A stretch of DNA of 64,000 nt from an uncultured Bacilli bacterium (GTDB lineage: Bacteria; Bacillota_I; Bacilli_A; RF39; UBA660): positions 69,351 to 133,350 of the forward strand of contig CALVQE010000001.1 of assembly GCA_944355355.1 (NCBI GenBank), written 5' to 3'. Each line of letters opens with the position of its first letter. The stretch's first letter is position 1. The notes beneath the pieces are model-generated. The model worked only from the letters and a program-made list of their open reading frames with translations. It was not told where the DNA came from and did no database searches. The translations under genes and the position numbers were made by a program. Of the stretch, positions 3,575-56,133 are shown piece after piece.

Positions 3575-3821
3575 CGAAATTATTTCCCGGGAAATAATTT
3601 AAATAAAAAAATCATGAATATAAGGACGAGTTAAAACCCGTGGTACCACCTTATTTCATGATTATCTCATGCACTCTTTCTCTAACGCAGAAATACGTTT
3701 CAACTCCAGAGCCATCTTCCATAGTAACCCTTTACTTATTTTCACCAATCATAAGCTCTCTAAAAAAGAATCATTATGTACTCTTTCCTTCACCATTGAA
3801 TACCCTAATTCTAACATAAAA
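3575..3821 (-). promoter_or_regulatory. T-box riboswitch leader (Met-specific by context) upstream of metG, with a terminator/antiterminator switch
   Basis: On the minus strand there is an F-box-like GCGTTA, then the T-box sequence AAGGTGGTACCACGGG (plus 3637-3652; consensus AGGGTGGTACCGCGG). It overlaps the 5' arm of a hairpin (CATGAAATAAGG ... CCTTATATTCATG, plus 3614-3660) followed by a U-tract (plus 3601-3612). The 266-nt 5' leader length is typical of T-boxes. Confidence 0.75.
3582..3595. promoter_or_regulatory. Noc-binding-site-type palindrome ATTTCCCGGGAAAT, within the 22-bp palindrome AATTATTTCCCGGGAAATAATT at 3578-3599
   Basis: Exact match to the B. subtilis NBS consensus. Located in the metG leader. 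Confidence 0.65.
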
Positions 3822-4374: not shown

Positions 4375-7300
4375 TTATACTTCTAAATCATCACAAATTT
4401 TTTGAACCAAAGCCACCACATCATAAATAAAATGCTTTTCTTGATATAAAATTGGTAACAAAATACTAATCTGTTTATTTTCAAACTTAATTTGAAATTT
4501 TGGATTAATACTATACGCCTCCAAAAACAACTTATCTCCCTTAATTTTAGCAGAAATCTCCTCTGATAACCAAAATTGAATGATTCGGTTATTTTGAACA
4601 ACCTTAACAATATTTAAGCGGTTAGCTAACTTTTCAAACCATTCTTCATACATATAAATTCCCATATTTTCCGTGATAGTTCCAAAACGATCGATTAGCA
4701 TACTCTTGACATCTTCTAATTTTTGATAAGAATCAATTTCATTAATTAATTGATGAATTTCAATTTTAACTGACTCATCCGAAACATAATCATCGTCAAT
4801 ATGTGTTTCAACTCGAATAAGAGACTCCTTATCCTCATCTTCAGGAACATATTCACCCTTTAATCGTTTCATTTCATCTTCAATCATTTTCATATACAAA
4901 CTAATTCCAACTGTATCAACAAAACCAGCTTGCTCACTACCCAAAATATCTCCAGCTCCGCGTATAGACAAATCTCTCATTGCAATCTTATAACCACTAC
5001 CAAGCTCCGTAAAATCTCGAATAGCCTGCAACCGTTTTACGGCAATATCATTAAGCATCTTATTTTTATGATATAAAAGATATGCATATGCAATCTTATT
5101 ACTACGACCAACACGGCCCCTAAGTTGATAAAGCTGACTAAGTCCAAAACGATCCGCATCATAAATAATTAAAGTATTAGCATTAGGAATATCAATACCT
5201 GTCTCAATAATAGTCGTACTAACCAAAATATCAAAATCATAAGCAATAAAACTACTCATAATATCATCTAACTCAGTTTTAGTCATCCGACCATGAGCAA
5301 AACGAATTCTAGCCTCAGGAACCAACTTTTGTAAATGCGAAACCTTTTCCTCAATCGTTTCTACTCGATTATATAAAACAAAAACTTGCCCATTGCGCGC
5401 TAATTCTTTATAAATAGCATCTTTAACTAACATATCACTATCCGAAACAACATAAGTTTGAATTGGATATCGATTAATAGGTGGAGTATCAATAATAGAT
5501 AAATCCCGAAGTCCCGATAAACTCATTTTTAAAGTCCTAGGAATTGGTGTAGCCGATAAAGTTAAAACATTAACATCATTTTTTAATTCTTTAATCTTTT
5601 CTTTATGCGTTACTCCAAAACGTTGTTCCTCGTCAATAACTAATAACCCTAACCGTTTAGGTTGAACCTCCTTCGAAAGAAGACGATGCGTTCCAAAAAC
5701 AATATCAATCTTTCCAGACTTTAAGCCTTCTAGAATTTCTGCTGCTTCTTTCTTTGTCGTAAAACGATTAAATAATCGAATTTCTACAGCAAAATTACGA
5801 AATCTCTCCAAAGCAGATTCATACTGTTGTTTAGATAAAATCGTTGTTGGACACAAATAAAGAACTTGCTTATTATTACAAACAGCCTTAAACATACCAC
5901 GAAAAGCAACTTCCGTCTTTCCAAAACCAACATCACCACATAATAAACGATCCATAGGCACAACTGAATCTAAATCATGAAAAACATCCTTAATTGCCCG
6001 AATCTGATCTCTTGTCTCGTCATAAGCAAAATCATTGGCAAATAAGTCCTCCTCAGGAAAATCTTGATACGCTTCACCAACTACACTATTACGCTTAGCA
6101 TATAATTTAATTAGTTCCCCAGAAATATCTCGAATTTTTTTCTGAACAGCTTGTTTCTTTCTCTGCCATACAGGAGAATTCAATTTATTAATCTGAGGCT
6201 TCATTCCATCTTTATCACTATATTTATATATACTAGAAATCTTCTCAACTGGCACATAAACCTTATCATTACCTAAATAAGCAATCTGTAAATAATCCTT
6301 TTTTAATCCCTGAACATTTAAAGTAACAACTCCACAATAAATGCCTATCCCATGTGCCCGATGAACAACATAATCACCAGTCTGTAAAGCATTTAAATCA
6401 CGAATTTTTTTCCCAATATGCAAATTATTTTTATACTTAACTTCCTGCTTAATTTCTTCAATATCAAATTCAGAAATAACGACCAAATTATCCCAAATAA
6501 AACCTTTATTTATCTTAAAATGAACGATATTAATTGCATTTTCATGAAACTGACCATCTTTCACTAAAACAACATTTTGCTCAAACAAATCACGAATCTC
6601 ACTAATCTGATTAGATGTTGACAAAGCAAAAACAACCGTCTTTTTTTGATAAATAAAACCTTGTACAACCTCTTTCAACTTAGTAAAATTTCCCTTAAAA
6701 TTATCAATTTCATTAGTTTGAAAACGACAAACATTTTTACTCTTTAAATCATTAACAACATGATTAACATATAAAATATAACTAGGATGAATTTCATCAA
6801 AAGAAAGAAAAAACTTTTGACTATCTAATTCTTGCTCCTTTTGATAAGCTAAACTTTCCTCAACCAAATGAGCATAACTAGCCTCAATTTGTGGATAATC
6901 AAAATAAACTACTGTAGCATCACCCATATATTGAAGTAAAGAACTATACCCTTCAGTTTTTACTTCATCAACAGGCCGACAAGTAATAGACGAAACCTCA
7001 CTAACAGTACGTTGTGTCTCTTCATCAAAATAACGAATAGATTCAATAGTATCGCCAAAAAACTCAATACGTATTGGATGGTTTTCATCAATTAAAAACA
7101 CATCCAAAACAAAACCTCTTACAGCATATTCCCCAGTTGAAGTAACCATAGAATCACGTTGATAACCTAAGTTCTCCAAAGTTGAAACCAAATCTTCACG
7201 AGAAATTTCCAAATCCTTTTTTAAAGTGATTTTCAAAGAATCCTGAACACTTTTTTGAGGAAGCATTCTTAGATATCCCATCAAATTAGTAATAACAATA

Positions 7301-7590
7301 CATTTTTCTTGAACCTTTTCCAAAGTTTCCAAACGCTTTAACTTTAATTCAGGAGATACAGCCAATGCTACTGAAGTAAAAAAATCATCCATTGGAAACA
7401 AAAAAACTTGATCTGTATAAGTTTCCATTGCTTGATAAAGCTTATTAGCATCATACAAATTACTTGTCACTAAAAGCACAGAAGAATCATGACATTTAAA
7501 ATACTCCAACACGTAAAAAAGAGATAACTCACTCGTTAATCCTTCATTTATTGTTCCATTATCAAATCTAAACTCTTTAAACTTTTCCAT
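4375..7590 (-). CDS. mfd: transcription-repair coupling factor Mfd
   Basis: 1071 aa, DEEQRFGV (DEAH box) and TLSATPIPRTL helicase motifs, with pth upstream. Confidence 0.95.
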   Translation of the reverse strand: MEKFKEFRFDNGTINEGLTSELSLFYVLEYFKCHDSSVLLVTSNLYDANKLYQAMETYTDQVFLFPMDDFFTSVALAVSPELKLKRLETLEKVQEKCIVITNLMGYLRMLPQKSVQDSLKITLKKDLEISREDLVSTLENLGYQRDSMVTSTGEYAVRGFVLDVFLIDENHPIRIEFFGDTIESIRYFDEETQRTVSEVSSITCRPVDEVKTEGYSSLLQYMGDATVVYFDYPQIEASYAHLVEESLAYQKEQELDSQKFFLSFDEIHPSYILYVNHVVNDLKSKNVCRFQTNEIDNFKGNFTKLKEVVQGFIYQKKTVVFALSTSNQISEIRDLFEQNVVLVKDGQFHENAINIVHFKINKGFIWDNLVVISEFDIEEIKQEVKYKNNLHIGKKIRDLNALQTGDYVVHRAHGIGIYCGVVTLNVQGLKKDYLQIAYLGNDKVYVPVEKISSIYKYSDKDGMKPQINKLNSPVWQRKKQAVQKKIRDISGELIKLYAKRNSVVGEAYQDFPEEDLFANDFAYDETRDQIRAIKDVFHDLDSVVPMDRLLCGDVGFGKTEVAFRGMFKAVCNNKQVLYLCPTTILSKQQYESALERFRNFAVEIRLFNRFTTKKEAAEILEGLKSGKIDIVFGTHRLLSKEVQPKRLGLLVIDEEQRFGVTHKEKIKELKNDVNVLTLSATPIPRTLKMSLSGLRDLSIIDTPPINRYPIQTYVVSDSDMLVKDAIYKELARNGQVFVLYNRVETIEEKVSHLQKLVPEARIRFAHGRMTKTELDDIMSSFIAYDFDILVSTTIIETGIDIPNANTLIIYDADRFGLSQLYQLRGRVGRSNKIAYAYLLYHKNKMLNDIAVKRLQAIRDFTELGSGYKIAMRDLSIRGAGDILGSEQAGFVDTVGISLYMKMIEDEMKRLKGEYVPEDEDKESLIRVETHIDDDYVSDESVKIEIHQLINEIDSYQKLEDVKSMLIDRFGTITENMGIYMYEEWFEKLANRLNIVKVVQNNRIIQFWLSEEISAKIKGDKLFLEAYSINPKFQIKFENKQISILLPILYQEKHFIYDVVALVQKICDDLEV

Positions 7591-7599
7591 TAAAATCCC

Positions 7600-8151
7600 C
7601 TACTTACTATTATAACGATTCATAGTTTTTTCTATTCCATTCTCAATAAAAAAATAAATAATCTCTTGATAAAAAGAAAAATGTTGGATTAAGAATTCCA
7701 TTTCATCTTTAGAAAAGTTTCCTAAAACATAATGTATAGTATCCCCTTTTAAATCATGCGAAATTCCTATTTTCAATCGAGCAAAATGAGTTGTTCCCAG
7801 TGCATCTATAATAGATTTAATTCCATTATGTCCTCCTGAAGAACTATCTATCTTCAACTTATGACGTCCAAAAGCTAAATCCATATCATCCTGTATCACT
7901 AAAATATCATCAGGATCAATATCATAATAACGACTTATCTTTGCAACGGATAAACCACTTAAATTCATAAAAGTAGTAGGTTTAACAAAAATACATTTTT
8001 CTCCTTGAATAGATTCTATCCGAACATAAGCTTGAAATTTTTTTTCTAAAGTAAATTCCTTCACAAAAGAATCTAAAATCATAAAACCAACATTATGACG
8101 AGTCAAAACATATTCTTTTCCAATATTTCCTAAACCAACAATCATTTTCAT
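7600..8151 (-). CDS. pth: peptidyl-tRNA hydrolase
   Basis: MKMIVGLGNIGKEY...TRHNVGF signature. Confidence 0.95.
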   Translation of the reverse strand: MKMIVGLGNIGKEYVLTRHNVGFMILDSFVKEFTLEKKFQAYVRIESIQGEKCIFVKPTTFMNLSGLSVAKISRYYDIDPDDILVIQDDMDLAFGRHKLKIDSSSGGHNGIKSIIDALGTTHFARLKIGISHDLKGDTIHYVLGNFSKDEMEFLIQHFSFYQEIIYFFIENGIEKTMNRYNSK

Positions 8152-8161
8152 TACTAATCAC

Positions 8162-8884
8162 TTACTTTCTAAAAATACCTTGATAACTTTCTAAACTTCC
8201 AATGTTTACTGGCGGATAAACACGAGTTCCAAATCGTCCTCCCTTAACACAAGTAACTAAAACCATTACAGGCTTTTCATTCATCTTAGAGTAAACAAAT
8301 TGTAATTCCTTTATAGCTAAACCAAAACGGTTAGCATAAATAAATATTTCATCAATCCGATCAGGAACATGTACTAAGTAAAATCTTCCCTTATCTTTTA
8401 AGAAAAAACTTGTTACTTCAAAAATTTCTTTCAATGTTATACAAATTTCATGTCGTGCAATACTTTTGATAAGATTTTTATTGATATTACTTGATTCTGT
8501 ATACTTAAAATACGGTGGATTACATAAAATAACATCAAAATTATTTCCCGGGAAATAATTTTTTAGCTCTTTTACATTATCGTGAATAAGCGTAATCACC
8601 TCTTCCATTTGATTATAACGGACTGACTCTTTGGCCAACTGGTATATTTCTTCTTGATACTCTACTCCCACAACTGGCTTACTATATTTATTTTGAATCA
8701 AAATAGGTATAACTGCATTGCCAGTACAAAAATCAATAATTTGATTATCATCTTTTTTTATCTGCGCAAATTCAAACAATAAAATTGAATCTAAAGAAAA
8801 TTTAAAACCTTCCTCATACTGATACACTTTTAGATTAGGATAATCAAATAACCAATTAAGAGTCTTTTTCATCATTCCAAACAA
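8162..8884 (-). CDS. class I SAM-dependent methyltransferase, YabB/TrmN6-like (NPPY motif)
   Basis: DFCTGNAVIPILI SAM-binding motif and NPPYFKY. Positioned after ricT and holB as yabB is in B. subtilis. Contains one copy of the ATTTCCCGGGAAAT palindrome. Confidence 0.75.
   Translation of the reverse strand: MFGMMKKTLNWLFDYPNLKVYQYEEGFKFSLDSILLFEFAQIKKDDNQIIDFCTGNAVIPILIQNKYSKPVVGVEYQEEIYQLAKESVRYNQMEEVITLIHDNVKELKNYFPGNNFDVILCNPPYFKYTESSNINKNLIKSIARHEICITLKEIFEVTSFFLKDKGRFYLVHVPDRIDEIFIYANRFGLAIKELQFVYSKMNEKPVMVLVTCVKGGRFGTRVYPPVNIGSLESYQGIFRK
8543..8556. promoter_or_regulatory. Noc-binding-site-type palindrome ATTTCCCGGGAAAT, with an identical 22-bp context at 8539-8560
   Basis: Inside the methyltransferase CDS, where it encodes YFPGNNF. 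Confidence 0.65.
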
Positions 8885-14026: not shown

Positions 14027-14157
14027 AATATACTCCCATAAAAAAAGTGCACACAAACAGGGAATGATGTGGCTGCTATCTTCCGATCCTGACCAGATTA
14101 CACTATATTTGTTGCACGAATACATAATATCAAATATTCAAGTAAAAATCAATCCAA

Positions 14158-18318: not shown

Positions 18319-20241
18319 CTATATATCCAAATCAGCATAACGAGCATTATCCTCAATAAACTTACGTCTTGGCTCAACTTCCTCACCCATAAGTGTTGAA
18401 AATATCTCATCTGCTGCAATTGTATCGTCAACCGTAATCTGTCTTAATGTTCTTTTCTCAATATCCATAGTTGTCTCGTAAAGTTCATCAGCATCCATCT
18501 CACCTAAACCCTTCATTCGACCAATTTCATACTTTGTACTAGGAGATAAAGATGCGATATATTCATCTTTTTCTTCATCTGTTAAAACATATTTAATTGT
18601 TTTACCATGTTTAATACTATATAAAGGTGGTTGAGCTGCATAAACATGCCCTGCTTCCACAATTGGTTTAAAGAAACGATAAAACAATGTCAATAAAAGT
18701 ACTCGAATATGAGCTCCGTCAACATCAGCATCGGTCATAATAATAATTTTATTATATCGAAGTTTAGATAAATCGAATTCTTCACCAATACCAGTTCCAA
18801 ATGCTGTAATAATAGTTCTAATTTCTTCATTAGATAAAGCTCGATCAAGTCTTGCCTTCTCTACATTCAATATTTTTCCGCGCAACGGAAGAATAGCCTG
18901 TGTCATACTATTACGACCCTTTTTAGCAGAACCACCAGCACTATCACCCTCGACTAGGAAAATTTCACACTCAGAAGGATCTTTACTCTTACAATCTGAT
19001 AACTTACCATAGAAATTAGTAATATCCAAATCGCCTTTCCTTCTCGTCAATTCACGAGCTTTCTTAGCCGCTAAACGAGCCCTAGAAGCAGTCATACATT
19101 TCTCAATAATTGCCCTAGCAGCATCAGGATTTTCTAATAAAAATCTTTCTAATCCATTACCAAAAACATCACTGGCAATTTTTTTTACTTCACTATTTCC
19201 CAATTTAGTCTTCGTCTGTCCTTCAAACTGAGGATTAGGATGTTTACAAGAAACAATCATAACTAATCCCTCTCGAACATCTTCACCTGTCAAACTGTCA
19301 TCATTATCTTTTAATAACTTATTCTGTTTAGCATAATTGTTAATAACTCTTGTTAAAGCTTGCTTAACACCATCTTCATGAGTACCGCCTTCAGTAGTAT
19401 GAATATTATTTGTAAAAGAATATATTTGAGAATTATAAGAATCGTTATATTGCATAGCCACTTCAATCATAACATCATTTTCTCGGCCCTCAACATAAAC
19501 AATATCATTAAATAAAGGCTGTTTAGCTTTATTAAGCATTTGAACATATTCAATAATTCCACCATTATAGTGAAAAATCTCTTTTTGCTCGTCCTCACGA
19601 TGATCAATTAAAGTAATTCGAATTCCCTTGTTTAAAAAAGCCATCTCTTGCAATCTTTTAAAAAGAATATCCCAATTATAAATGGTTGTTTCAAAACAAG
19701 TAGGATCAGCATGGAATGTAACCGTTGTTCCTGTTCGATCTTCACTACACTTATCAATAATTTTCAAAGGTTCTACAGGATGACCACCGTTTTCAAATCT
19801 TTGATAATAAACATTACCATCACGATAAACCCTAACCTCCAACCAATCAGAAAGAGCATTAACAACACTAGCACCAACACCATGTAGTCCTCCGGAAACT
19901 TTATAGCCACCGCCACCGAACTTTCCACCTGCGTGCAAAACTGTAAAAATTGTTTCAATAGTTGAAAGACCTGTTTTTGCATTCATTCCAGTTGGCATTC
20001 CACGACCATCATCTTTAACAGTTATTACATTACCTTTGCCAATTTCAACCTCAATATCATCACAATAACCAGCTAATGCTTCATCAACAGCATTATCTAC
20101 AATTTCCCATACCAAATGATGAAGACCTGCTTCATTAGTATTACCAATATACATACCAGGTCTTTTTCGAACTGCTTCTAACCCTTCAAGAACCTGGATA
20201 TCATTATCACTATAATGATTGTTATCTTGTTTCATGTTCAC
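18319..20241 (-). CDS. gyrB: DNA gyrase subunit B
   Basis: 640 aa, GHKL ATPase, Toprim [19 protein letters not shown]. Confidence 0.97.
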
Positions 20242-21328
20242 TCTCCTCCACTATATTTCCTAACTCAATACAAAATTTCTTATAGTTAAACTGATCTAAA
20301 AAACATAAATGATCTAATTCTGTTGTTGTAATAAAAGTCTGAACCTCAGGCTTTAACAATTCCAAAATATTTTTTATTTTTCCTTGATCTAACTCACTAA
20401 ATAAGTCATCTAATATCAAAATAGGATAATTCCCTGTACTTACTTTAAATATTTCTAATTCACTAAATTTATAGGCAATAACAGCATTCTTTTGTTGACC
20501 TTCACTACCATAATCCTTTAAATCCTTACCGTCAAGCAAAAATCGCAAATCATCCATATGAATACCAATATGAGTTTTACCAAATTTTAAATCTTTTTCC
20601 AATCCTTTTTGATATAACTTCGTTAAAACCTGTTTATTAACATTATGATAAGAAGAAATATACTCAAGTTGTAATCCAGCAGAACCAGTAATTTTCTCAT
20701 AATAAGTAGTCAAGTATGGATTTAATAAACGAATAAATTCATCACGTTTTTGATAAATATAATAACCATATTCAATTAATTTTTCCGTTAAAATATTCAA
20801 ATATTCCCCGGATTGATTGGCATTTACAATCATTTGCTTTAAATAGGCATTTCTTTGCTTTAAAACATTTTGATAATTATTTAAATACTGCAAATATTGA
20901 AAATAAATTAAAGAAATAGAAATATTTAAAGTTTTTCGCCTGGTACTTGGAGCATCTTTAATAAAACGTAAATCATCTGGATGAAAAAGAACAATAGCCA
21001 TATTCGAAATATAATCGCTAATCTTGGTAATATTTTGCTGATTAATTCTAACTTTTTTTCCTTCCTTAGAAAGATAAACACGATAATTAATCAACGATTT
21101 TCGGTAAACATTGCCCTCAATACGTGAAGCATCTTTACCATCTGATATTAATGTTTTTTCTTGAGCCATTCGAAAACTTCTAGTTAAAAACAAAACATAG
21201 ATAGCTTCAACCAAATTTGTTTTACCTGAACCATTTTTTCCATAAATCAAATTAAGCTTAGGATGGAATTTTATATCTAAATGTTCATAATTTCTAAAAT
21301 TTAACAACTTCAAAGACTCAATTCTCAT
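20222..21328 (-). CDS. recF: DNA replication and repair protein RecF
   Basis: Walker [10 protein letters not shown], position between gyrB and dnaN. Start moved to MRIESLKL because the 26-codon upstream extension in the ORF track is AT-rich junk. Confidence 0.9.
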
Positions 21329-21407
21329 AAAATACCTCTTAATTTTAATTTTAAGAAAAATAATAGGTATAATAATACTCCTATACCTACAAACATTATA
21401 ACACATT

Positions 21408-21875
21408 TTAACGCCTGTTAAAATGTTTTTTTTGTACTTTTCGTCCTCTTAAAGCACTTTCTAACCGTGTAGCTCTTAACAGTTGATTATCAAAAATACC
21501 AAAAGTGACATTTAACAATATTTTTCGCCCATTTAAGAATTCCAAAACTACATTTTTACCTTCTTTATAGTACTTATTCACATACTTCAAGCTAATCCAA
21601 GGAGTATCATGATATCGTGCAGAAGAAAGAGGAAAAAAAATCAATCCAAAAGTTTCTTCTACAATAATAGGCGCTTTATAATTAACCCCTATCATCACCT
21701 CAGTACCTTTACGCCTTCCCTCTAAACTACTTCCAAAATATTGACAACTATTTTCCATAATTTGAGTAGCATTCATATCCAAAATAAACTCTTCTTCATA
21801 CTCTAATACCTTAACTTTTTCTTTAGACAAAGGAATCAAAGCCATTGTTTCATTATTAATTTCATAATTTTTCAT
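21408..21875 (-). CDS. comK: ComK-family competence transcription factor
   Basis: YEINNETMALIP, SCQYFGSSLEGRRKGT, KAPIIVEETFGLIFFPLSS, WISLKYV and FDNQLLRATRL align with B. subtilis and S. aureus ComK blocks. Start at MKNYEI, preceded by a GGAGGGGG RBS. Occupies the slot where yaaA sits in B. subtilis. Confidence 0.75.
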   Translation of the reverse strand: MKNYEINNETMALIPLSKEKVKVLEYEEEFILDMNATQIMENSCQYFGSSLEGRRKGTEVMIGVNYKAPIIVEETFGLIFFPLSSARYHDTPWISLKYVNKYYKEGKNVVLEFLNGRKILLNVTFGIFDNQLLRATRLESALRGRKVQKKHFNRR

Positions 21876-22021
21876 AATTTTTCCCCCTCCAAAAATGAAA
21901 ATTATCTCTAGAATAACACACAAAAAGAGAAAAAAATGTCGAAAAAAGAATTGTTCTAAAAATTAAGTTTAATTAAAAAATTTATAGCATTTATTAAAAT
22001 AAAAAACTGTCACTTGACAGC

Positions 22022-23140
22022 TTAGTATGTTTTAATTGGTAAGATAAGTTGAATCAAAGACTCATCCGTTAAAGATTTAATAACTAATGGCTTAACATCA
22101 TTATTTAATAAAATTAAAATATCCTCGTCTTTAATTGTTTTCAAAGCCTCTAACATATATTTAGAACTAAAAGAAATATCGATATTAGCTGACTCACTAG
22201 TATCAATCATAATTTTTTCTTCGGTTTTACCTATCTCTGAAGCAAAAGAATGAATAATCATCTCTCTGTTTTCTATTTTCATTTTAATAATATTTTTATC
22301 TTTACCTTGAGTTAACAATGCCGCACGATCCACAGCGCCCATAAAATCATTTTTCTTAGTTTGAACAATGATTTCAAATTCAGTAGGAATTAAATTAGAT
22401 GTATTAGGATAGCTTCCACTTAAGATATTAGTTTGAAATTTAATGTTTTTGTATTGAAATAACACCCTATTATTGAAAACATGAATATAAACATCTTCAT
22501 CATCAACCAAAATATGCTCTAATTCAATAACATTTTTACCAGGAATTACAATATTAACATCACTAGAAGCAGGATTATCAAGTCGAATATTCTTTTTAGC
22601 CAAACGATAAGAATCCGTAGCAATACATTCTAACAAATCACCATTAATTTTTAAATTTAAACCAGTTAAAATTGGTCTTAACTCTTGAGTTGAAATAGCA
22701 AAACTAGTTTGGTTAATAAGTTCTTTTAAAATACTAGCCTTCATAACAATTGGATCCTTCTGAGTTAATAACTTAATACTAGGATATTCACTTGGATCTA
22801 AACAATTTAAGTTATATTGATTAAAATCAGAATAAATTTTAATTTTTAAACTGTCCATCATTTCAAAATTAATAACATCACTAGGCATCTTTCGAATAAT
22901 TTCCAAAATATACTTACTACTAATAATAATAGTACCTGTACTTTCGATATTCTTAATAAGGTTACTTTCAATAAAAGTCTCTACAGTTAATTCACTATCA
23001 CTAGCCATTAAAGTCAAACCATCACTTTTTAATTCAAATTTAATTCCGTTTAAAACTGGAATAACATTTTTAGTTGATATTCCTCTTACTACATTATTTA
23101 AATTTTCTAACAAAATACTTTTTTCGATTGCAAATTTCAT
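22022..23140 (-). CDS. dnaN: DNA polymerase III beta sliding clamp
   Basis: Start set at MKFAIEKS with an AGAGGGAAGGA RBS. The 37-codon upstream extension in the ORF track overlaps DnaA boxes. Three-domain clamp, about 372 aa. Confidence 0.93.
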   Translation of the reverse strand: MKFAIEKSILLENLNNVVRGISTKNVIPVLNGIKFELKSDGLTLMASDSELTVETFIESNLIKNIESTGTIIISSKYILEIIRKMPSDVINFEMMDSLKIKIYSDFNQYNLNCLDPSEYPSIKLLTQKDPIVMKASILKELINQTSFAISTQELRPILTGLNLKINGDLLECIATDSYRLAKKNIRLDNPASSDVNIVIPGKNVIELEHILVDDEDVYIHVFNNRVLFQYKNIKFQTNILSGSYPNTSNLIPTEFEIIVQTKKNDFMGAVDRAALLTQGKDKNIIKMKIENREMIIHSFASEIGKTEEKIMIDTSESANIDISFSSKYMLEALKTIKDEDILILLNNDVKPLVIKSLTDESLIQLILPIKTY

Positions 23141-23295
23141 AAAGCATCCTTCCCTCTTTCTTATTTTATTTAATATATATTCATAATAATAATGATGTGG
23201 ATAATGTGAATAACTTTTGGAATAACTATAAATACTAGCTTCATAGCCCATTTTTTATGTGCATAGTTATTCACATTGATATTTTTTTATCCACA
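23141..23295. promoter_or_regulatory. oriC part 2 (dnaA-dnaN intergenic, incC-like): DnaA boxes plus an AT-rich unwinding element
   Basis: TGTGGATAA and TTATCCACA are perfect DnaA boxes; TGTGAATAA and TTATTCACA are 1-mismatch boxes. The AT-run ttattttatttaatatatattcataataataat at 23161-23195 is a candidate DUE. Confidence 0.8.
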
Positions 23296-24681
23296 TTACA
23301 TCTTATTTTGAATTTCTTTAATTTGATTTTCTAAGGTTTTATTCACCTTCAGCTCCTCTACAATTTTATCACAAGCGTGAATAACTGTCGAGTGATCCCT
23401 ACCTCCAAATTCTAAACCAATTCGGTTTAAATTTTCTTCAGTTAAAATACGTGACAAATACATAGCTATTTGTCGTGGATAAGCTATATCAGCACTACGT
23501 CTTTTTCCCTTTAAATCCTCTACTCGAATATGAAAATAATCTGCTACAGCTTTTTGAATAGATTCAATACTGTCTGTTTTATAAATGTTTCTATTTACAA
23601 AATCAGCTAAAGCTTCAATAGCAAAATTTAAATCAATTTTAGGCGGAACAACCATTGCAGTATAAGCCATCAAACGATTTAACGCTCCTTCCAAAAAGCG
23701 AACGTCATTTTGACAACTATTAGCGATGTATTCAATAACGTTTTCATCTATTTTAGTCGAAATAGACATGTTCTTAAGTTTTGCACGAATAATCTCACAT
23801 CTAAGTTCGAAATCAGGTGGATAAATGTCTACAGGAAGCCCCCACATAAACCGACTTCGAAGTCTTTCTTCTAACAATTTTAGATCATCTGGACTTCGAT
23901 CAGAACTAATAATGATTTGTTTATTAGCTTGATGAAGTGTATTAAAAGTATGGAAAAATTCTTGTTGAGTCTTCTCTGCTCCAACTAAATATTGAATATC
24001 ATCGATAATCAGCACATCCACTTCACGATATTTACGTTTAAAATTTGCCATGACTTGCACATTATTTCCTTTATTCTCAGAATTAGAAATATTGATATAG
24101 TCATCTTTAAACATTTCACTTGTCGTATAGAGTACTTTTTTCTTAGAATGACTAACAATATAATTACCTATTGCGTGCATTAAATGGGTTTTACCTAACC
24201 CACTCTTTCCATAGATAAACAAAGGGTTATGCACTTTACCAGGTTGTTCAGCTACAATCATTCCAGCAATTTTAGCCAGTCGATTCGAATCCCCAACAAT
24301 ATAATTATCAAAATTCAATTCAGGACGAAGATTTGTTTCCCATTTTTCATCAACTTGAGAAACTTCAATCTTCTCTTCAACAAAGTTATCCACATTATCC
24401 ACAATTGGGTCAAACTTTAGAAGTTCATCCCCTATTTCTTCTTTTAGTAAAAATTCAAATTCATAATTGTGATTCGTTACTTTATAAAAAGCGTCATCGA
24501 TCAAATTATAATAATTTGTAGTTAAAATACGCTTATGAATTTCCATCGGTACTTGAATATATACCTTATTATCTTGAATTTTAATTAGTTTTAAATCATG
24601 AAACCAGGCATGAAATGAAGCTGAATTTACTTCAGGATATATTTCATCCAACACAGATTGCCAAAGATCTTTTTGCTCCAT
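23296..24681 (-). CDS. dnaA: chromosomal replication initiator DnaA
   Basis: 461 aa, AAA+ GKSGLGKTHL, C-terminal DNA-binding domain with the DnaA signature IGLEFGGRDHSTVIHA. Confidence 0.97.
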   Translation of the reverse strand: MEQKDLWQSVLDEIYPEVNSASFHAWFHDLKLIKIQDNKVYIQVPMEIHKRILTTNYYNLIDDAFYKVTNHNYEFEFLLKEEIGDELLKFDPIVDNVDNFVEEKIEVSQVDEKWETNLRPELNFDNYIVGDSNRLAKIAGMIVAEQPGKVHNPLFIYGKSGLGKTHLMHAIGNYIVSHSKKKVLYTTSEMFKDDYINISNSENKGNNVQVMANFKRKYREVDVLIIDDIQYLVGAEKTQQEFFHTFNTLHQANKQIIISSDRSPDDLKLLEERLRSRFMWGLPVDIYPPDFELRCEIIRAKLKNMSISTKIDENVIEYIANSCQNDVRFLEGALNRLMAYTAMVVPPKIDLNFAIEALADFVNRNIYKTDSIESIQKAVADYFHIRVEDLKGKRRSADIAYPRQIAMYLSRILTEENLNRIGLEFGGRDHSTVIHACDKIVEELKVNKTLENQIKEIQNKM

Positions 24682-50954: not shown

Positions 50955-51605
50955 ATGAAAAAGAGAAAATTAAAAGGATATGTTTTACCCACATTATATT
51001 TGTTTATAATTGGATTAATGGCAGTAGGAGTAACTTTTTTATCGAAAAATTTACTAGATAAAAATGTAGAAACAGATGAAAACTATAATTATTCCATGAG
51101 TGTTTTTGATGAAAATGAACAAACACCTACGACTACAAATGAAGAACCGGTAAGTGAAAAAGTAAGCATGCCTTATACAAGTGCAAATGTTACTGTAGCT
51201 AAAAGTTTTTACAACAAAGACGAATCAAACGAAAATCAAGAAAGCGCTTTAATTTACTATGAAAATACCTATATGCCAAATACAGGCGTATTATATGAAT
51301 CAGATGAAATCTTTGATGTTGTATCTCCTATGGATGGAACTGTCAAAGACATTAAAACAGATGAAATTTTAGGTACCGTGCTAACCATTGAACATAACTC
51401 CAAAGTCACAAGCGTTTATTATGCTTTAGGAGAAACAAAAGTCAATGTGGGTGATACAGTAACCAAAAATCAATTAATTGCAACTTCAGGAACATCAAAA
51501 TTGGAAACTGACAAAGAACAAACTCTTCTTTTCGAAGTATATATTGATGGTGTATTAACAAATCCTACAGAATTCTACAAAAAAACATTAGATGAATTAA
51601 AATAA
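50955..51605 (+). CDS. membrane-anchored degenerate LytM (M23) domain protein, SpoIIQ-like
   Basis: N-terminal TM segment plus a C-terminal M23 fold that lacks the second catalytic His (SVYYAL instead of TxYxHL), as in SpoIIQ. Directly follows spoIID as in Clostridia. Confidence 0.5.
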   Translation: MKKRKLKGYVLPTLYLFIIGLMAVGVTFLSKNLLDKNVETDENYNYSMSVFDENEQTPTTTNEEPVSEKVSMPYTSANVTVAKSFYNKDESNENQESALIYYENTYMPNTGVLYESDEIFDVVSPMDGTVKDIKTDEILGTVLTIEHNSKVTSVYYALGETKVNVGDTVTKNQLIATSGTSKLETDKEQTLLFEVYIDGVLTNPTEFYKKTLDELK

Positions 51606-51698
51606 TCCCAAAAGGGATTTTTTTAAAATATGGTAGCAATATATTTATTTGAAAACATCATTCAATATAAAGAAAAAGAAGAGATAAAAGAGTTCATA

Positions 51699-52205
51699 AT
51701 GCCTAAAAAAGCTATGGAATACGGTAAAATAAAAAATATTCCAATGTTTGAAGAATATTTAAGCAAATTAATAAAGCAAGAAAAATGGGTAAATTTATTT
51801 CAGTCAAAACCCATCGCCATTTTACTACCGTTATTCTATGAAGAAACAGATAAAGAAATACTAACAGTAATTTTAAACAATTTAGGAATAAAAAATATTA
51901 AATATAAAAAAGAATTAAGTTTATATGATAAAAAGAATAATCAATTAATATTAAATGTTCATACAAACTATATAACAGTATACTATCAGCAAAAAGGTGC
52001 AGGAATAAAAAGGTTTTATCCATTAAACATCTATCATAATATAGATGAAGCAATAAAACATATTCAAAAAAATTATAAAAATACAACAATGTATCTTTTA
52101 GGAAGTAATCCAAAACTAGCAAATTTAATAAAAAAAATAGATTCTCATCGTTGTTTTTACTATCAAAATCGTAGAACAATTCTTTTAGAAAAGTATATAC
52201 CTTAA
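51699..52205 (+). CDS. hypothetical protein
   Basis: The ORF track gives 51630-52205. Start moved to MPKKAMEY. No recognisable motif. Confidence 0.45.
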   Translation: MPKKAMEYGKIKNIPMFEEYLSKLIKQEKWVNLFQSKPIAILLPLFYEETDKEILTVILNNLGIKNIKYKKELSLYDKKNNQLILNVHTNYITVYYQQKGAGIKRFYPLNIYHNIDEAIKHIQKNYKNTTMYLLGSNPKLANLIKKIDSHRCFYYQNRRTILLEKYIP

Positions 52206-52275: not shown

Positions 52276-52989
52276 ATGCAAGTAATAGTTGTAGAAGATG
52301 AGTTAAAAGATCAAAAGAGTATAAAAGAAATTATTAGAGAATTCTCTTTTGAAAATAATTGTGATATTGAAATAAAATATTTCAAAAAATACGATGAGAG
52401 TTTACAAAATGAAATTAACAATTGCTCTTATCGTAAAGTCTATATTATGGATATTGAATTAGAACATAGTATAAGTGGAATAGAAATAGCTAAGAAAATT
52501 AGAGAAAAAGACTGGGATAGTGAAATCATTTTTGTGACAACACATGATAAAATGTTTGAAAGTGTACATCGAAGTATTCTGGAAGTTTTTGATTTTATAG
52601 AAAAGTTTCAAAACTTTGACGAAAGGTTGAAGAAAGATTTGAAAATTATTTATGAAAAGAAATTTGATAAGAAACTTCTAAAATTAACAGGTAGAAACGT
52701 TAATGTAGAAATATATATGAAGAACATACTTTATATCACCAGAGATAAAGAAGATAGAAAAGTAGTCATTCACACTGAAAATGAAGTAGAGTTTAAAATA
52801 GGTATGACTTTAACAGAAATATTAAACATGTTAGATAATCGTTTTGTTCAAACACATAAAAGTTGTATTGTGAATAAAGAGAAAGTAGTAAAATTGAATT
52901 ACAGTCAAGGTTATTTTGTATTAGAAACAGGTGAGAAGGTAGATATGTTATCAAAGAAATATAGAAAAGGAATTGAAGATCAAAAATGA
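52276..52989 (+). CDS. agrA: LytTR-family response regulator (AgrA/ComE-like)
   Basis: Receiver domain with the phospho-acceptor Asp in IMDIEL. C-terminal LytTR domain (FVQTHKSCIVN). Confidence 0.85.
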   Translation: MQVIVVEDELKDQKSIKEIIREFSFENNCDIEIKYFKKYDESLQNEINNCSYRKVYIMDIELEHSISGIEIAKKIREKDWDSEIIFVTTHDKMFESVHRSILEVFDFIEKFQNFDERLKKDLKIIYEKKFDKKLLKLTGRNVNVEIYMKNILYITRDKEDRKVVIHTENEVEFKIGMTLTEILNMLDNRFVQTHKSCIVNKEKVVKLNYSQGYFVLETGEKVDMLSKKYRKGIEDQK

Positions 52990-54254
52990 TTGAATTTTTA
53001 TTAATTTTCATAGCTTCCCTTATTTCACAAATAGTAACTATCTTTGCATATGGTAAAATCAATAAGAAAAAGCTTTGTTTAAAAGAATTGGATTTTGTAC
53101 TTATAATAAGTATGAGTTTGTTTCAAGCCTTACAAAATATATATGAATTTTTTATAGGTAAACTAATTAGTCCCCTGATTTCTATTATTTATTTTATTTA
53201 TGTTTTTCAAAGAATGTATAAAAGTGATAGAAAAACAGCAGTAAGTTACAGCATAATTATTTGGACGATCAGCGTAATAATTGATTTAATAAGTATGTTA
53301 ATAATAAGTAATACTGTCACATTAAATGAGCAAAATCGTAATATATTAAAATTTTTTAGTTCGTTATTTATGAGCTTAATTCAATTAATAATTTTTATAC
53401 TTCCTATAAGTCAAAAATACATTAAAAAAATTAATCAAAAAATAGTTCAGGGTAACATTGATTTTAAACATATTAGTGTAGTAATAGTAATTTATCTAAT
53501 TATCGGTGTTTTTTCGGTAAGTAATATAGACAATGCTTATTTAATATCTGTAGTAGTTGTAATTGGCCTCATTTCATTAATTATTATTTATAATTTTGTT
53601 TCAATGAACTATCAAATTGTAATGTTAAAGAAAACTAATGACATTTTAGAAAAAAATAACGAGGGAAATTTGGAACTTTTAAAGGAATACAGAGTTTTGA
53701 AACATAATTTAGAACATAACTTGATGGGAATTAAAAGTGTAGCAAATAAAAAGTCTCAACAACTAATTGACGCTTTAATAAAAGAATATAATAGCAAATT
53801 TTATATTAAACAAGATATGACAAGTATGCCGGGAGGAATAAATGGTTTTATATTAGAAAAGTTCTATAAGTATGCCGAAGAAGATTTGAAGATCACAGTA
53901 GAAAATAAAATCAAGAAAAAGATCTTAGGCTTACTTGGACCAAGAAACTATAATTTGTTTTGTGAAGCTTTAGGAGTGACATTAGACAATGCTTTGGAAT
54001 CAGCAGTAAAAAGCAAAGAGAAACTTTTATATTTAGAGTTTAAAGAAACCAAAGAAAGTTTAATGGTAACGGTAACAAATACCTTCACAGGTAATATTGA
54101 AATAGATAAATTAGGCACAAAAGAATATACTTCAAAAGAAACAGGCCATGGATTAGGCTTATATTCTTTATTTAATCGTAAAAACCTTTATATTACTACA
54201 GCTATCAAAAATAATCTTTTTATAAATAAAATAGAAGTAAAAAAGAAGCATTAA
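52986..54254 (+). CDS. agrC: AgrC/ComD-type (HPK10) membrane histidine kinase
   Basis: Six to seven N-terminal TM helices. C-terminal HATPase with GHGLGLYS. ATGA overlap with the response regulator gene. Confidence 0.8.
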   Translation: MIEFLLIFIASLISQIVTIFAYGKINKKKLCLKELDFVLIISMSLFQALQNIYEFFIGKLISPLISIIYFIYVFQRMYKSDRKTAVSYSIIIWTISVIIDLISMLIISNTVTLNEQNRNILKFFSSLFMSLIQLIIFILPISQKYIKKINQKIVQGNIDFKHISVVIVIYLIIGVFSVSNIDNAYLISVVVVIGLISLIIIYNFVSMNYQIVMLKKTNDILEKNNEGNLELLKEYRVLKHNLEHNLMGIKSVANKKSQQLIDALIKEYNSKFYIKQDMTSMPGGINGFILEKFYKYAEEDLKITVENKIKKKILGLLGPRNYNLFCEALGVTLDNALESAVKSKEKLLYLEFKETKESLMVTVTNTFTGNIEIDKLGTKEYTSKETGHGLGLYSLFNRKNLYITTAIKNNLFINKIEVKKKH

Positions 54255-54280
54255 AAAATTGAGTTAAATAGCTCAATTTT

Positions 54281-54394
54281 TTACATGATTTCCAAATCAG
54301 CTTCAGGTTCATCCCAAAAATACCAAACACAAGCAGACGAAACAGATTTTGCAAAAATATTTGCAATTCCAGCTAAAATATCGGCTAGAAACAT
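54281..54394 (-). CDS. agrD: AgrD autoinducing-peptide precursor (37 aa, MFLADILAGIANIFAKSVSSACVWYFWDEPEADLEIM)
   Basis: Hand translation. Amphipathic N-terminal leader, a conserved Cys followed by 4-5 hydrophobic residues, then the acidic DEPE recognition tail typical of AgrD. Lies 44 nt downstream of agrB on the same strand. Confidence 0.75.
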   Translation of the reverse strand: MFLADILAGIANIFAKSVSSACVWYFWDEPEADLEIM

Positions 54395-54437
54395 TTTCTT
54401 TCACATCCTTTCTTCTTGTTTAAATCTATATAAATAT

Positions 54438-55070
54438 TTAAACCGAAAATTCTGGATACTTTTTATAATTATTAAAGGAAGTATGAAAGAGCTTATACGT
54501 AAGTGGATTAATAGATATACTTTCAATAATAACCGCATAAACGATGGTGTTCGATAATATGGTATTATTAGTAAATGAAAATAAAACAAAGTAGCAAACA
54601 AATATAACCATGGCAAGTACTTTTGCTCGGATTCTTTTATTTCTTCTTATTAAAGGCCTAGCTGGCGTATCAGCAGGTGCAAAGAATAAAAATGAAAGAA
54701 ATCCAAATATCCATATCAAATAATTAAATGAATCTGAGAATACAAAATATTTAATAAGTAAACACCCTCCTATATAAATAGGAACTGTAGTAAACCAACA
54801 TTGTAAACTTGTTTTCATATGTATTCCAAACCCATACATTCGAAGCGTTGAGTAAATAGCTGTTAATAAAAGCAATTCAGGTATTAGGTCTAAAATAATT
54901 GCTAAAATAAGTAAAACTACAGTCTTAGTTGCCAAATTATAAAATCCTTCTAAACCATACCGTAATTTTTTTTCCTCAAGTTCACTGATTGTTTTCTTTC
55001 TCTTAATAAGCTGAATAGAAGATTCAATAAACTTTTTTTTCACCACATCACTACTCCCAACGAAAACCAT
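54438..55070 (-). CDS. agrB: AgrB-family membrane peptidase that processes and exports AgrD
   Basis: RMYGFGIHMKTSLQCWF, FAPADTPARPLI and IIESISINP correspond to the S. aureus AgrB blocks R..HGAHA..SFWC, YAPAATKKKPI and IIEAITLLP. Confidence 0.8.
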   Translation of the reverse strand: MVFVGSSDVVKKKFIESSIQLIKRKKTISELEEKKLRYGLEGFYNLATKTVVLLILAIILDLIPELLLLTAIYSTLRMYGFGIHMKTSLQCWFTTVPIYIGGCLLIKYFVFSDSFNYLIWIFGFLSFLFFAPADTPARPLIRRNKRIRAKVLAMVIFVCYFVLFSFTNNTILSNTIVYAVIIESISINPLTYKLFHTSFNNYKKYPEFSV

Positions 55071-55350
55071 TCTACCAAAGAAAAAAGAGGATGAATCGTT
55101 CTTAGTCGAAAAAGTAAAATTAAAGGTTTTAAAAAGGAAAAAACTAAAGGAATATGTTATAAAAAAAGAATTTGAAGCAAAAAAAGCCTATTTTGAGACA
55201 AAAACTATTCTTTAATCAAAAAAACAAAGTATAATGGGCAACATCGTGGGTTATGTGATATTTATAGGTATGAAAGTTTATAAATGAAATGAACACATAA
55301 ACATGATAGTAGAAGTAGGTAGTGAAAAGTAATAGGAAGGGAGTGTAAAA

Positions 55351-55569
55351 GTGTTAAAAGGAACTGTAAAATGGTTCAACAATGCCAAAGGGTATGGCTT
55401 CATCCAATATGGAGATTTAGAAGACATCTTTGTTCATTATTCAGCCATTAACATGGAAGGCTACAAAACCTTAAAAGAAGGTAACATTGTTGAATTCAAA
55501 TTAATTGAAACTGCAAAAGGCCTACAAGCTATCAATGTTGAAGAAGTTTCCAATGTTGTTGAAGCATAA
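55351..55569 (+). CDS. cspA: cold-shock protein (CspA family), copy 1
   Basis: GTG start, RNP1 motif KGYGFI, 72 aa, long 5' UTR. Confidence 0.9.
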   Translation: MLKGTVKWFNNAKGYGFIQYGDLEDIFVHYSAINMEGYKTLKEGNIVEFKLIETAKGLQAINVEEVSNVVEA

Positions 55570-55917
55570 AAATTAAAACATTCAGCTTAGAAAAAACAGT
55601 TTAGAAAAGCAGAAATGTCTTGAAAAAATGTTTCTGTCTTTTTTTGCCACTGCGATTGCTATAAACAATTCTACTATAAATGTCCAAACCAACACTTTAA
55701 TAAATATCTTATTCTCTTAGATACTTTTGATACCAAAAAAACATACTTTGAGACAAAAACAATCTTATAAATGAAAAAACAAAGTATAATGAGCACTATC
55801 GTGGCTTATGTGTTATTTATTTTTTGCAAAATTTGTCGATCGAAATAAATTGAAGTCTATACATAAACATGATAAGGTAGAAACAGGTAGTAAAAGTAAT
55901 AGGAAGGGAGTGTAAGA

Positions 55918-56133
55918 GTGCTAAGAGGAACCGTAAAATGGTTCAACAATGCCAAAGGGTATGGCTTCATTAAATATGGAGATCTAGAAGATATCTTCGT
56001 TCATTACTCAGCAATCAACATGGATGGTTATAAGACACTAAAAGAAGGTAACATTGTTGAATTCAAATTGATTGAAACAGCGAAGGGTTTGCAAGCCATT
56101 AATGTTGCTGAAGTAACACACATTGTAAACTAA
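55918..56133 (+). CDS. cold-shock protein (CspA family), copy 2
   Basis: GTG start, about 90% identical to copy 1, with a duplicated 5' UTR and its own terminator. Confidence 0.9.
   Translation: MLRGTVKWFNNAKGYGFIKYGDLEDIFVHYSAINMDGYKTLKEGNIVEFKLIETAKGLQAINVAEVTHIVN

Follow-up and report, generated by a model that had tools for sequence, protein, structure and literature searches.

The window analysed here, a 64-kb stretch of DNA from an uncultured Bacilli bacterium of the RF39 lineage, contains a locus that very probably serves agr-type quorum sensing by an autoinducing peptide (AIP) and is organised as two convergent transcription units. The open reading frame (ORF) listing and the profile searches place genes for an AgrA-like response regulator (52276..52989) and an AgrC-like sensor histidine kinase (52986..54254) on the plus strand, facing agrD (54281..54394) and agrB (54438..55043) on the minus strand. 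A preliminary description of this DNA had proposed a complete agr-type locus comprising AgrB, AgrD, an AgrC-like HPK10 kinase and a LytTR regulator. This is supported by profile matches, synteny and the co-variation of peptide and sensor, and the convergent CA and BD units that it described agree with the ORF coordinates and with the synteny of related loci.

The agr-type genes and their conservation

A scan of one genome per species yielded 21 related loci, in assemblies labelled uncultured Bacilli, 'Tenericutes' or Candidatus Ventrenecus, a genus that NCBI places in Bacteria incertae sedis. The gene order SpoIID-M23 peptidase-orf191-response regulator-kinase, convergent with AgrD-AgrB, which in turn diverge from Csp-HPF-SecA, is conserved in ~20 species-level genomes. 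Because the agr locus keeps the same core-genome position in these species, an origin from a mobile element was rejected.

The agrB product matched Pfam AgrB (PF04647) with 109 bits (cut-off 23, E = 2.3e-31) over profile positions 5-184 of 185. Identity to Staphylococcus aureus AgrB was only ~22%; in the BLASTP alignment (E = 6e-9), His84 and Cys91 aligned with the catalytic His77 and Cys84 (GIH84MKTSLQC91W and GAH77APSSFWC84Y, respectively), the two residues being seven positions apart. The mechanical ORF reaches back to ATG 55070 (210 aa). The conserved GTG at 55043, giving 201 aa, is most likely the start instead, because neither ATG 55070 nor the GTG next to it is kept in the closest relative (L001), which does retain the GGGAG Shine-Dalgarno sequence, and because most AgrB homologues are 201 aa long.

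The regulator consists of a receiver domain (Pfam Response_reg, E = 1.1e-9) and a LytTR DNA-binding domain (E = 7.6e-14). Its mechanical ORF begins at TTG 52243, and homologues and public gene calls begin at M12, giving a protein of 237 aa that is 58-71% identical across all related loci. The kinase gene overlaps the regulator stop by 4 nt and encodes 422 aa, with a membrane sensor at about residues 1-205 followed by a DHp/CA kinase module. The sensor contains at least six hydrophobic segments, in a polytopic layout of 6-7 transmembrane segments, and the module matches Pfam HATPase_c_5 (PF14501, E = 4e-10) and conserves His240 in 'KHN', the N box 'LDNA' and the G box 'GHGLGL'. As predicted from these features, the layout is that of AgrC and the HPK10 family.

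The 37-residue minus-strand ORF that the preliminary description had read as AgrD (MFLADILAGIANIFAKSVSSACVWYFWDEPEADLEIM, 54281..54394, ATG start) is present as given and is a real AgrD. It begins 43 nt after agrB (gap 54395..54437), one nucleotide fewer than had been stated, and scores 20.4 bits against NCBIfam TIGR04223 (cut-off 19), a model also matched by 17 of 19 AgrD relatives (best E = 4.9e-8). As expected from that reading, each of the 19 related loci extending that far has an AgrD-like ORF after agrB. The amphipathic leader and acidic tail claimed for the peptide were borne out as well. The leader (residues 1-21) is amphipathic (helical hydrophobic moment 1.35, shuffle mean 0.60, p ~0.007), and in the Cys-aligned family L7, A11, F14, A15, S17, S19, A21, C22, D28, E29 and P30 are invariant, including the Cys itself and the DEP that opens the follower DEPEADLEIM (D28-M37). 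The exact sequence already occurs in public gene calls (NCBI, ENA and Logan; 17 contigs), where it carries no name or Pfam match, so that the ORF was unannotated in the sense of lacking an assigned identity, not in the sense of having been overlooked. When representative sequences were searched exhaustively with the peptide, no more than two short relatives came back, each with a Cys, five residues and DEP, the remaining matches being spurious ones in long repetitive proteins; PDB sequence searches with AgrB and AgrD returned no relevant solved structure. Two entries of the ORF track that had been regarded as mis-annotations, 54285..54557 (plus strand, 90 aa) and 54401..54616 (minus strand, 71 aa), are mechanical ORFs only, read antisense or in another frame within the well-supported agrB and agrD region, and were rejected as genes.

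Peptide-sensor co-variation and the putative operator

Across species, mean pairwise identity was 27% for the sensor, 51% for the kinase module, 61% for the regulator and 58% for AgrB. Among contigs of the same species as the window, the flanks were 98-100% identical, and AgrA and AgrB 98.5-100% identical, to those of the window, but rings and sensors differed. With the window (predicted ring CVWYFW) as reference, the sensor was 30% identical in L026 (CMWFMW), 29% in L031 (CLIYFW) and 30% in L032 (CLLYFW), the last being 64% identical to that of L031; between groups, sensor identity was 29-34%. Nucleotide identity between the window and L026 falls from at least 98% to 43-60% only between ~52990, at the kinase start, and ~54370, in the agrD leader. 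Ring and sensor switch jointly inside this sharply bounded 1.4-kb block (~52990..54370) within one species, the block comprising the whole kinase gene, the intergenic hairpin described below, and the agrD core and follower.

These same-species ring and sensor variants are, by prediction, agr specificity groups. At least three or four of them occur in the species, and they share one AgrB and one AgrA. Because ring and sensor co-vary within one species, the AgrD peptide is tied to the adjacent kinase, and because AgrB is invariant across pherotypes, the variable cassette consists of agrC plus the agrD core, not of agrB-agrD-agrC. The DHp/CA module (53596..54254) behaves differently from the sensor: the window allele is 82-86% identical to those of L026, L031 and L032, which are 95-100% identical to each other although their sensors are only ~30% identical. 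From this contrast, exchange between alleles seems to have involved the sensor/kinase boundary in addition to the edges of the block.

Upstream of agrB, on the minus strand, two 9-bp direct repeats are arranged as GTCTCAAAA-N12-GCTTCAAAT (55170..55199), ~123 nt from the agrB start. Direct repeats in a 9-12-9 spacing are the established operator architecture of LytTR regulators, as in AgrA, ComE and PlnC sites, and the pair is a predicted AgrA (LytTR) binding site. Of 22 loci, 18 have such a pair similarly placed, in most cases 114-128 nt ahead of the start codon. A position weight matrix built without the window's own site scored 55170..55199 at 25.5, the top match in 64 kb, while the maximum in 30 shuffles was 18.3. 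The presence and conservation of the repeats were computed; regulator binding, autoinduction, promoter and regulon we infer.

The second-best matrix match in the window, GCTTTAAAT-N12-GCTTTAAAA at 20836..20865 on the plus strand, scored 22.9, above the same shuffle maximum, and its likeness to the agrB site extends to the spacer. The match falls within recF, antisense to that gene, and is not followed by a plus-strand gene. It may reflect no more than chance in coding DNA rich in A and T, or else be an antisense target. Next to the agr locus, the cold-shock protein gene is tandemly duplicated together with its upstream region (55351..55569 and 55918..56133, plus strand). A degenerate LytTR repeat pair (55725..55754, minus strand; score 16.1) is located upstream of the second copy, and the same-species contigs L023 and L028 have one copy only.

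Several observations weigh against the agr-type reading or narrow its scope. It was built entirely from sequence, and the host is uncultured. The best NCBIfam match of the regulator, the AgrA equivalog, reached 46 bits, far under its cut-off of 400, and the staphylococcal AgrC equivalog reached 34.7 bits with the kinase (cut-off 500), which is why the kinase is not an AgrC orthologue in the strict sense. No repeat pair was recognisable in L007, L008 and L010. In the 64-kb window, the matrix scan found no target genes beyond agrBD and no repeat pair upstream of the regulator-kinase genes, and therefore only agrBD appears to be autoinduced. A generic sigma-70 promoter scan did no better than chance (37 found, 41.8 expected), and neither a -10 box downstream of the repeats nor a transcription start could be fixed. 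Moreover, the agrD ORF is short and, among the family searches that the preliminary description had suggested, the staphylococcus-centred Pfam AgrD model PF05931 gave 14.1 bits, below its gathering threshold of 22.7, with TIGR04223 and Pfam AgrB both passing. These last two points would suit a chance 37-codon frame in AT-rich intergenic DNA, with AgrB as an orphan, but the conservation data effectively refute such an origin and leave it next to no probability. The same architecture recurs in all 19 loci and in further same-species contigs, TIGR04223 is matched above its cut-off, a Shine-Dalgarno sequence is conserved upstream of agrD, and the invariant residues are written in several synonymous codons (Cys, TGT 13 and TGC 7; Pro, CCA 10, CCT 9 and CCC 1; Ser19, five codons), which argues for selection at the protein level. 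Alternatively, AgrBD might make a cyclic peptide for which the adjacent kinase and regulator are not the receptor but answer another signal, the peptide having its effect in other species or via a sensor that is not linked, an arrangement proposed for C. difficile agr1. Loci with agrBD only and sensing across loci are documented in clostridia, and here the two units are separate transcripts with no LytTR site ahead of the kinase operon. We nevertheless regard this as very improbable, given that the four genes are adjacent in ~20 species, that LytTR-type repeats precede agrB, and above all that ring and kinase sensor change together in one bounded block whose surroundings are 98-100% identical.

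Ring size, mature peptide and proposed mechanism

Whereas family membership, conservation and peptide-sensor co-variation were computed, we infer the cleavage position, ring size and mature chemical form of the peptide. The preliminary description placed Cys five residues before the cleavage point, with CVWYF as the ring. This is probably off by one: the precursor is more plausibly cut after CVWYFW, ahead of DEPEADLEIM, to give a six-residue ring (C22-W27), an assignment that leans on analogy and conservation. In the AgrD family alignment, Cys+1 to Cys+4 are hypervariable (entropy 1.7-2.9 bits), Cys+5 is limited to F (12), L (7) and W (1), and the invariant DEP starts at Cys+6 with its Pro at Cys+8. 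The Clostridium acetobutylicum AgrD sequence, ...GKCVLVTLYEPKMPEELL, likewise has Pro at Cys+8 (supplement of PMC10301443), and its AIP is the six-residue, tail-less CVLVTL (PMC12312760), the detection of which has been reported (PMC8251862).

AgrB might instead cut Phe26/Trp27 and close a thiolactone ring of five residues, C-V-W-Y-F, leaving SSA as its tail (SSACVWYF). This is unlikely, though it has the precedent of by far the commonest AIP architecture and the sequence does not formally bar a hydrophobic first residue in the follower, ahead of DEP. P1 would in that case fall on the hypervariable Cys+4, occupied by F, V, W, A, C, G, I, L or M, and the semi-conserved Cys+5 (F/L/W) would be discarded, with Trp27 stranded between ring and follower. 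A six-residue ring is favoured because Cys+5 is hydrophobic and semi-conserved, like a P1 residue, and Cys+4 even includes Gly and Cys; because Trp at Cys+5 is constant over the four same-species alleles that share one AgrB; and because Cys and Pro are spaced as in the AgrD of C. acetobutylicum, an experimentally supported six-residue system. In the precursors of five-residue rings (S. aureus group II, Listeria, C. difficile AgrD1 and C. perfringens), the corresponding Pro stands at Cys+7, and in S. aureus the follower starts with D-E right after the ring. The correction of the ring is of practical weight, since a synthetic peptide of five residues would probably show no activity.

The N-terminal cleavage site is not readable from the sequence, and the 'SSA' tail is a guess. 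The S-x-S-[ST]-A that invariably precedes Cys might be kept as a tail or might mark a protease site, and the invariant S-x-A|C at its end resembles a signal-peptidase site. In S. aureus, the N-terminal cut of AgrD is made by MroQ, not by signal peptidase (PMC9388083); a crude motif screen of the window, for its part, found no MroQ/CPBP-like leader protease. Computed [M+H]+ values for the six-residue ring are 885.375 for CVWYFW and 956.412, 1043.444 and 1130.476 with A, SA and SSA tails, and those for the five-residue ring are 699.296 for CVWYF and 944.397 with the SSA tail. Six-residue products are known from R. cellulolyticum, which produces CWFWSY, and tail-less thiolactones rearrange to lactams in clostridia.

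With the six-residue ring, the agr-type mechanism would run as follows. The amphipathic leader would anchor the 37-residue AgrD at the membrane, where AgrB, a predicted His/Cys membrane peptidase, would remove the acidic follower DEPEADLEIM, most likely by cutting Trp27/Asp28, and join the new C-terminus to the Cys22 thiol to form the thiolactone C-V-W-Y-F-W. A second protease would take off the leader. If it cut directly before Cys, the resulting tail-less thiolactone could convert to a homodetic cyclic hexapeptide, as in clostridia. On detecting the peptide through its polytopic sensor domain, the AgrC-like kinase would phosphorylate the LytTR regulator, and the regulator may bind the 9-12-9 repeats 5' of agrB, raising agrBD transcription in a positive feedback. 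The regulator-kinase pair, lacking a repeat site, is probably expressed independently.

Surrounding features and relation to known agr systems

The stop codons of the kinase gene and agrD are separated by 26 nt, and both are covered by an A/T-flanked hairpin (54252..54283; -12.7 kcal/mol, z = -3.9; 0 of 200 shuffles fold equally well), for which a role as a bidirectional terminator is plausible; it was missed by a consensus terminator scan because it has few G-C pairs. The order is A-C facing D-B, not a single agrBDCA operon divergent from an RNAIII transcript, and an Rfam scan detected no RNAIII or other regulatory RNA near the agr locus.

Directly 5' of the response regulator lies a 191-aa ORF (51630..52205, plus strand), which gave no Pfam or NCBIfam match and no predicted transmembrane segment. 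It is found with 28-49% identity at that position in most related loci and is missing from L007, L008 and L010. As a terminator-like hairpin (51604..51619) precedes it, the ORF may be co-transcribed with the regulator and kinase. Three related genomes depart from the common layout. In L018, a 667-aa protein (5116..7119, minus strand) with an N-terminal transmembrane or signal segment and Gly/Asn/Thr-rich, beta-helix-like repeats is inserted between agrD and the kinase gene, and is possibly a locally acquired agr-linked surface or secreted protein. L004 carries two tandem AgrC-like kinase genes (5828..8378), each ~45% identical to the window kinase, and L005 two tandem LytTR regulators (7103..8643), which suggests duplication and divergence of the sensing module in these relatives. 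Farther away in the window, dnaA, dnaN, a small S4-like ORF, recF and gyrB (18319..24681, minus strand), with gyrA farther out, mark the replication-origin region of the chromosome at a distance of ~30 kb from the agr genes; a T-box leader (3619..3802, minus strand) and the signal recognition particle RNA (14041..14121, minus strand) were also identified.

Taken together, these observations allow a broader proposal, conceivable but tentative: an uncultured gut Bacilli lineage, with assembly names suggesting human, rabbit and chicken samples, would possess a core-genome agr system with a Trp-rich ring of six residues, which may be a homodetic cyclopeptide with no tail, and at least three or four mutually divergent pherotypes in one species, all processed by a single invariant AgrB. 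If so, nothing but the constant leader, the P1 Trp and the DEP follower would determine AgrB specificity, pherotype switching would need only exchange of the agrC-agrD cassette, and synthetic peptides would offer strain-specific handles for cultivating or manipulating these organisms. The lineage gains a defined, synthesisable candidate signalling peptide with predicted masses, clear intraspecific pherotypes are documented directly from metagenome data, and the locus provides a natural test case of one AgrB serving several rings.

A literature search found no agr or cyclic-lactone-autoinducer work for RF39. Large-scale mining of AIP precursors from the gut has already been published (PMC11953309), and both separate agrBD/agrCA operons and the agrACDB order have been described. 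The departure from the canonical agrBDCA order and orientation, emphasised in the preliminary description, is thus real but a minor variation with precedents. Since six-residue rings, split operons, specificity groups and gut AIP mining are all precedented, the locus adds no new principle; it differs in detail, by its convergent units, its uncultured Bacilli host without agr literature found, and an AgrB that is invariant across pherotypes.

The locus shares with S. aureus agrBDCA (AIP-I to AIP-IV) the same four components, the aligned His and Cys of AgrB, an AgrD made up of amphipathic leader, Cys, hydrophobic core and acidic follower, a polytopic kinase sensor, a LytTR regulator with direct-repeat operator sites (predicted here), and intraspecific specificity groups in which the AgrD core co-varies with the AgrC sensor. 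In contrast to the single BDCA operon of S. aureus, the A-C and D-B pairs converge here, no RNAIII-like effector was identified, the predicted ring has six residues instead of five, and kinase and regulator fall short of the staphylococcal equivalog cut-offs. S. aureus AgrB is partly group-specific, whereas AgrB here is essentially invariant between groups (98.5-100%).

The nearest likeness in the peptide is to C. acetobutylicum (cyclo-CVLVTL, 'R6T0'), in which the spacing from Cys to (D/Y)EP is identical, with Pro at Cys+8, and agrBD and agrCA likewise form separate operons. There, however, agrBD is followed by agrCA beside a LanM-like effector gene, whereas here the units converge with no LanM-like gene; the leader sequences are unrelated, and the host is an uncultured Bacilli lineage, not a Clostridium. 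Rc-AIP1 of R. cellulolyticum (homodetic cyclo-CWFWSY) resembles the predicted peptide in its six-residue, Trp- and aromatic-rich core starting at Cys and in being made by AgrB from AgrD, as is predicted here. In C. difficile agr2 (agrA2-C2-D2-B2), the regulator and kinase genes also precede agrD and agrB in map order. The four genes there are co-directional, since a polar agrA2 insertion is expected to block all of them, and AgrD2 has Ser in place of Cys, whereas here the two pairs converge and Cys22 would close the ring.

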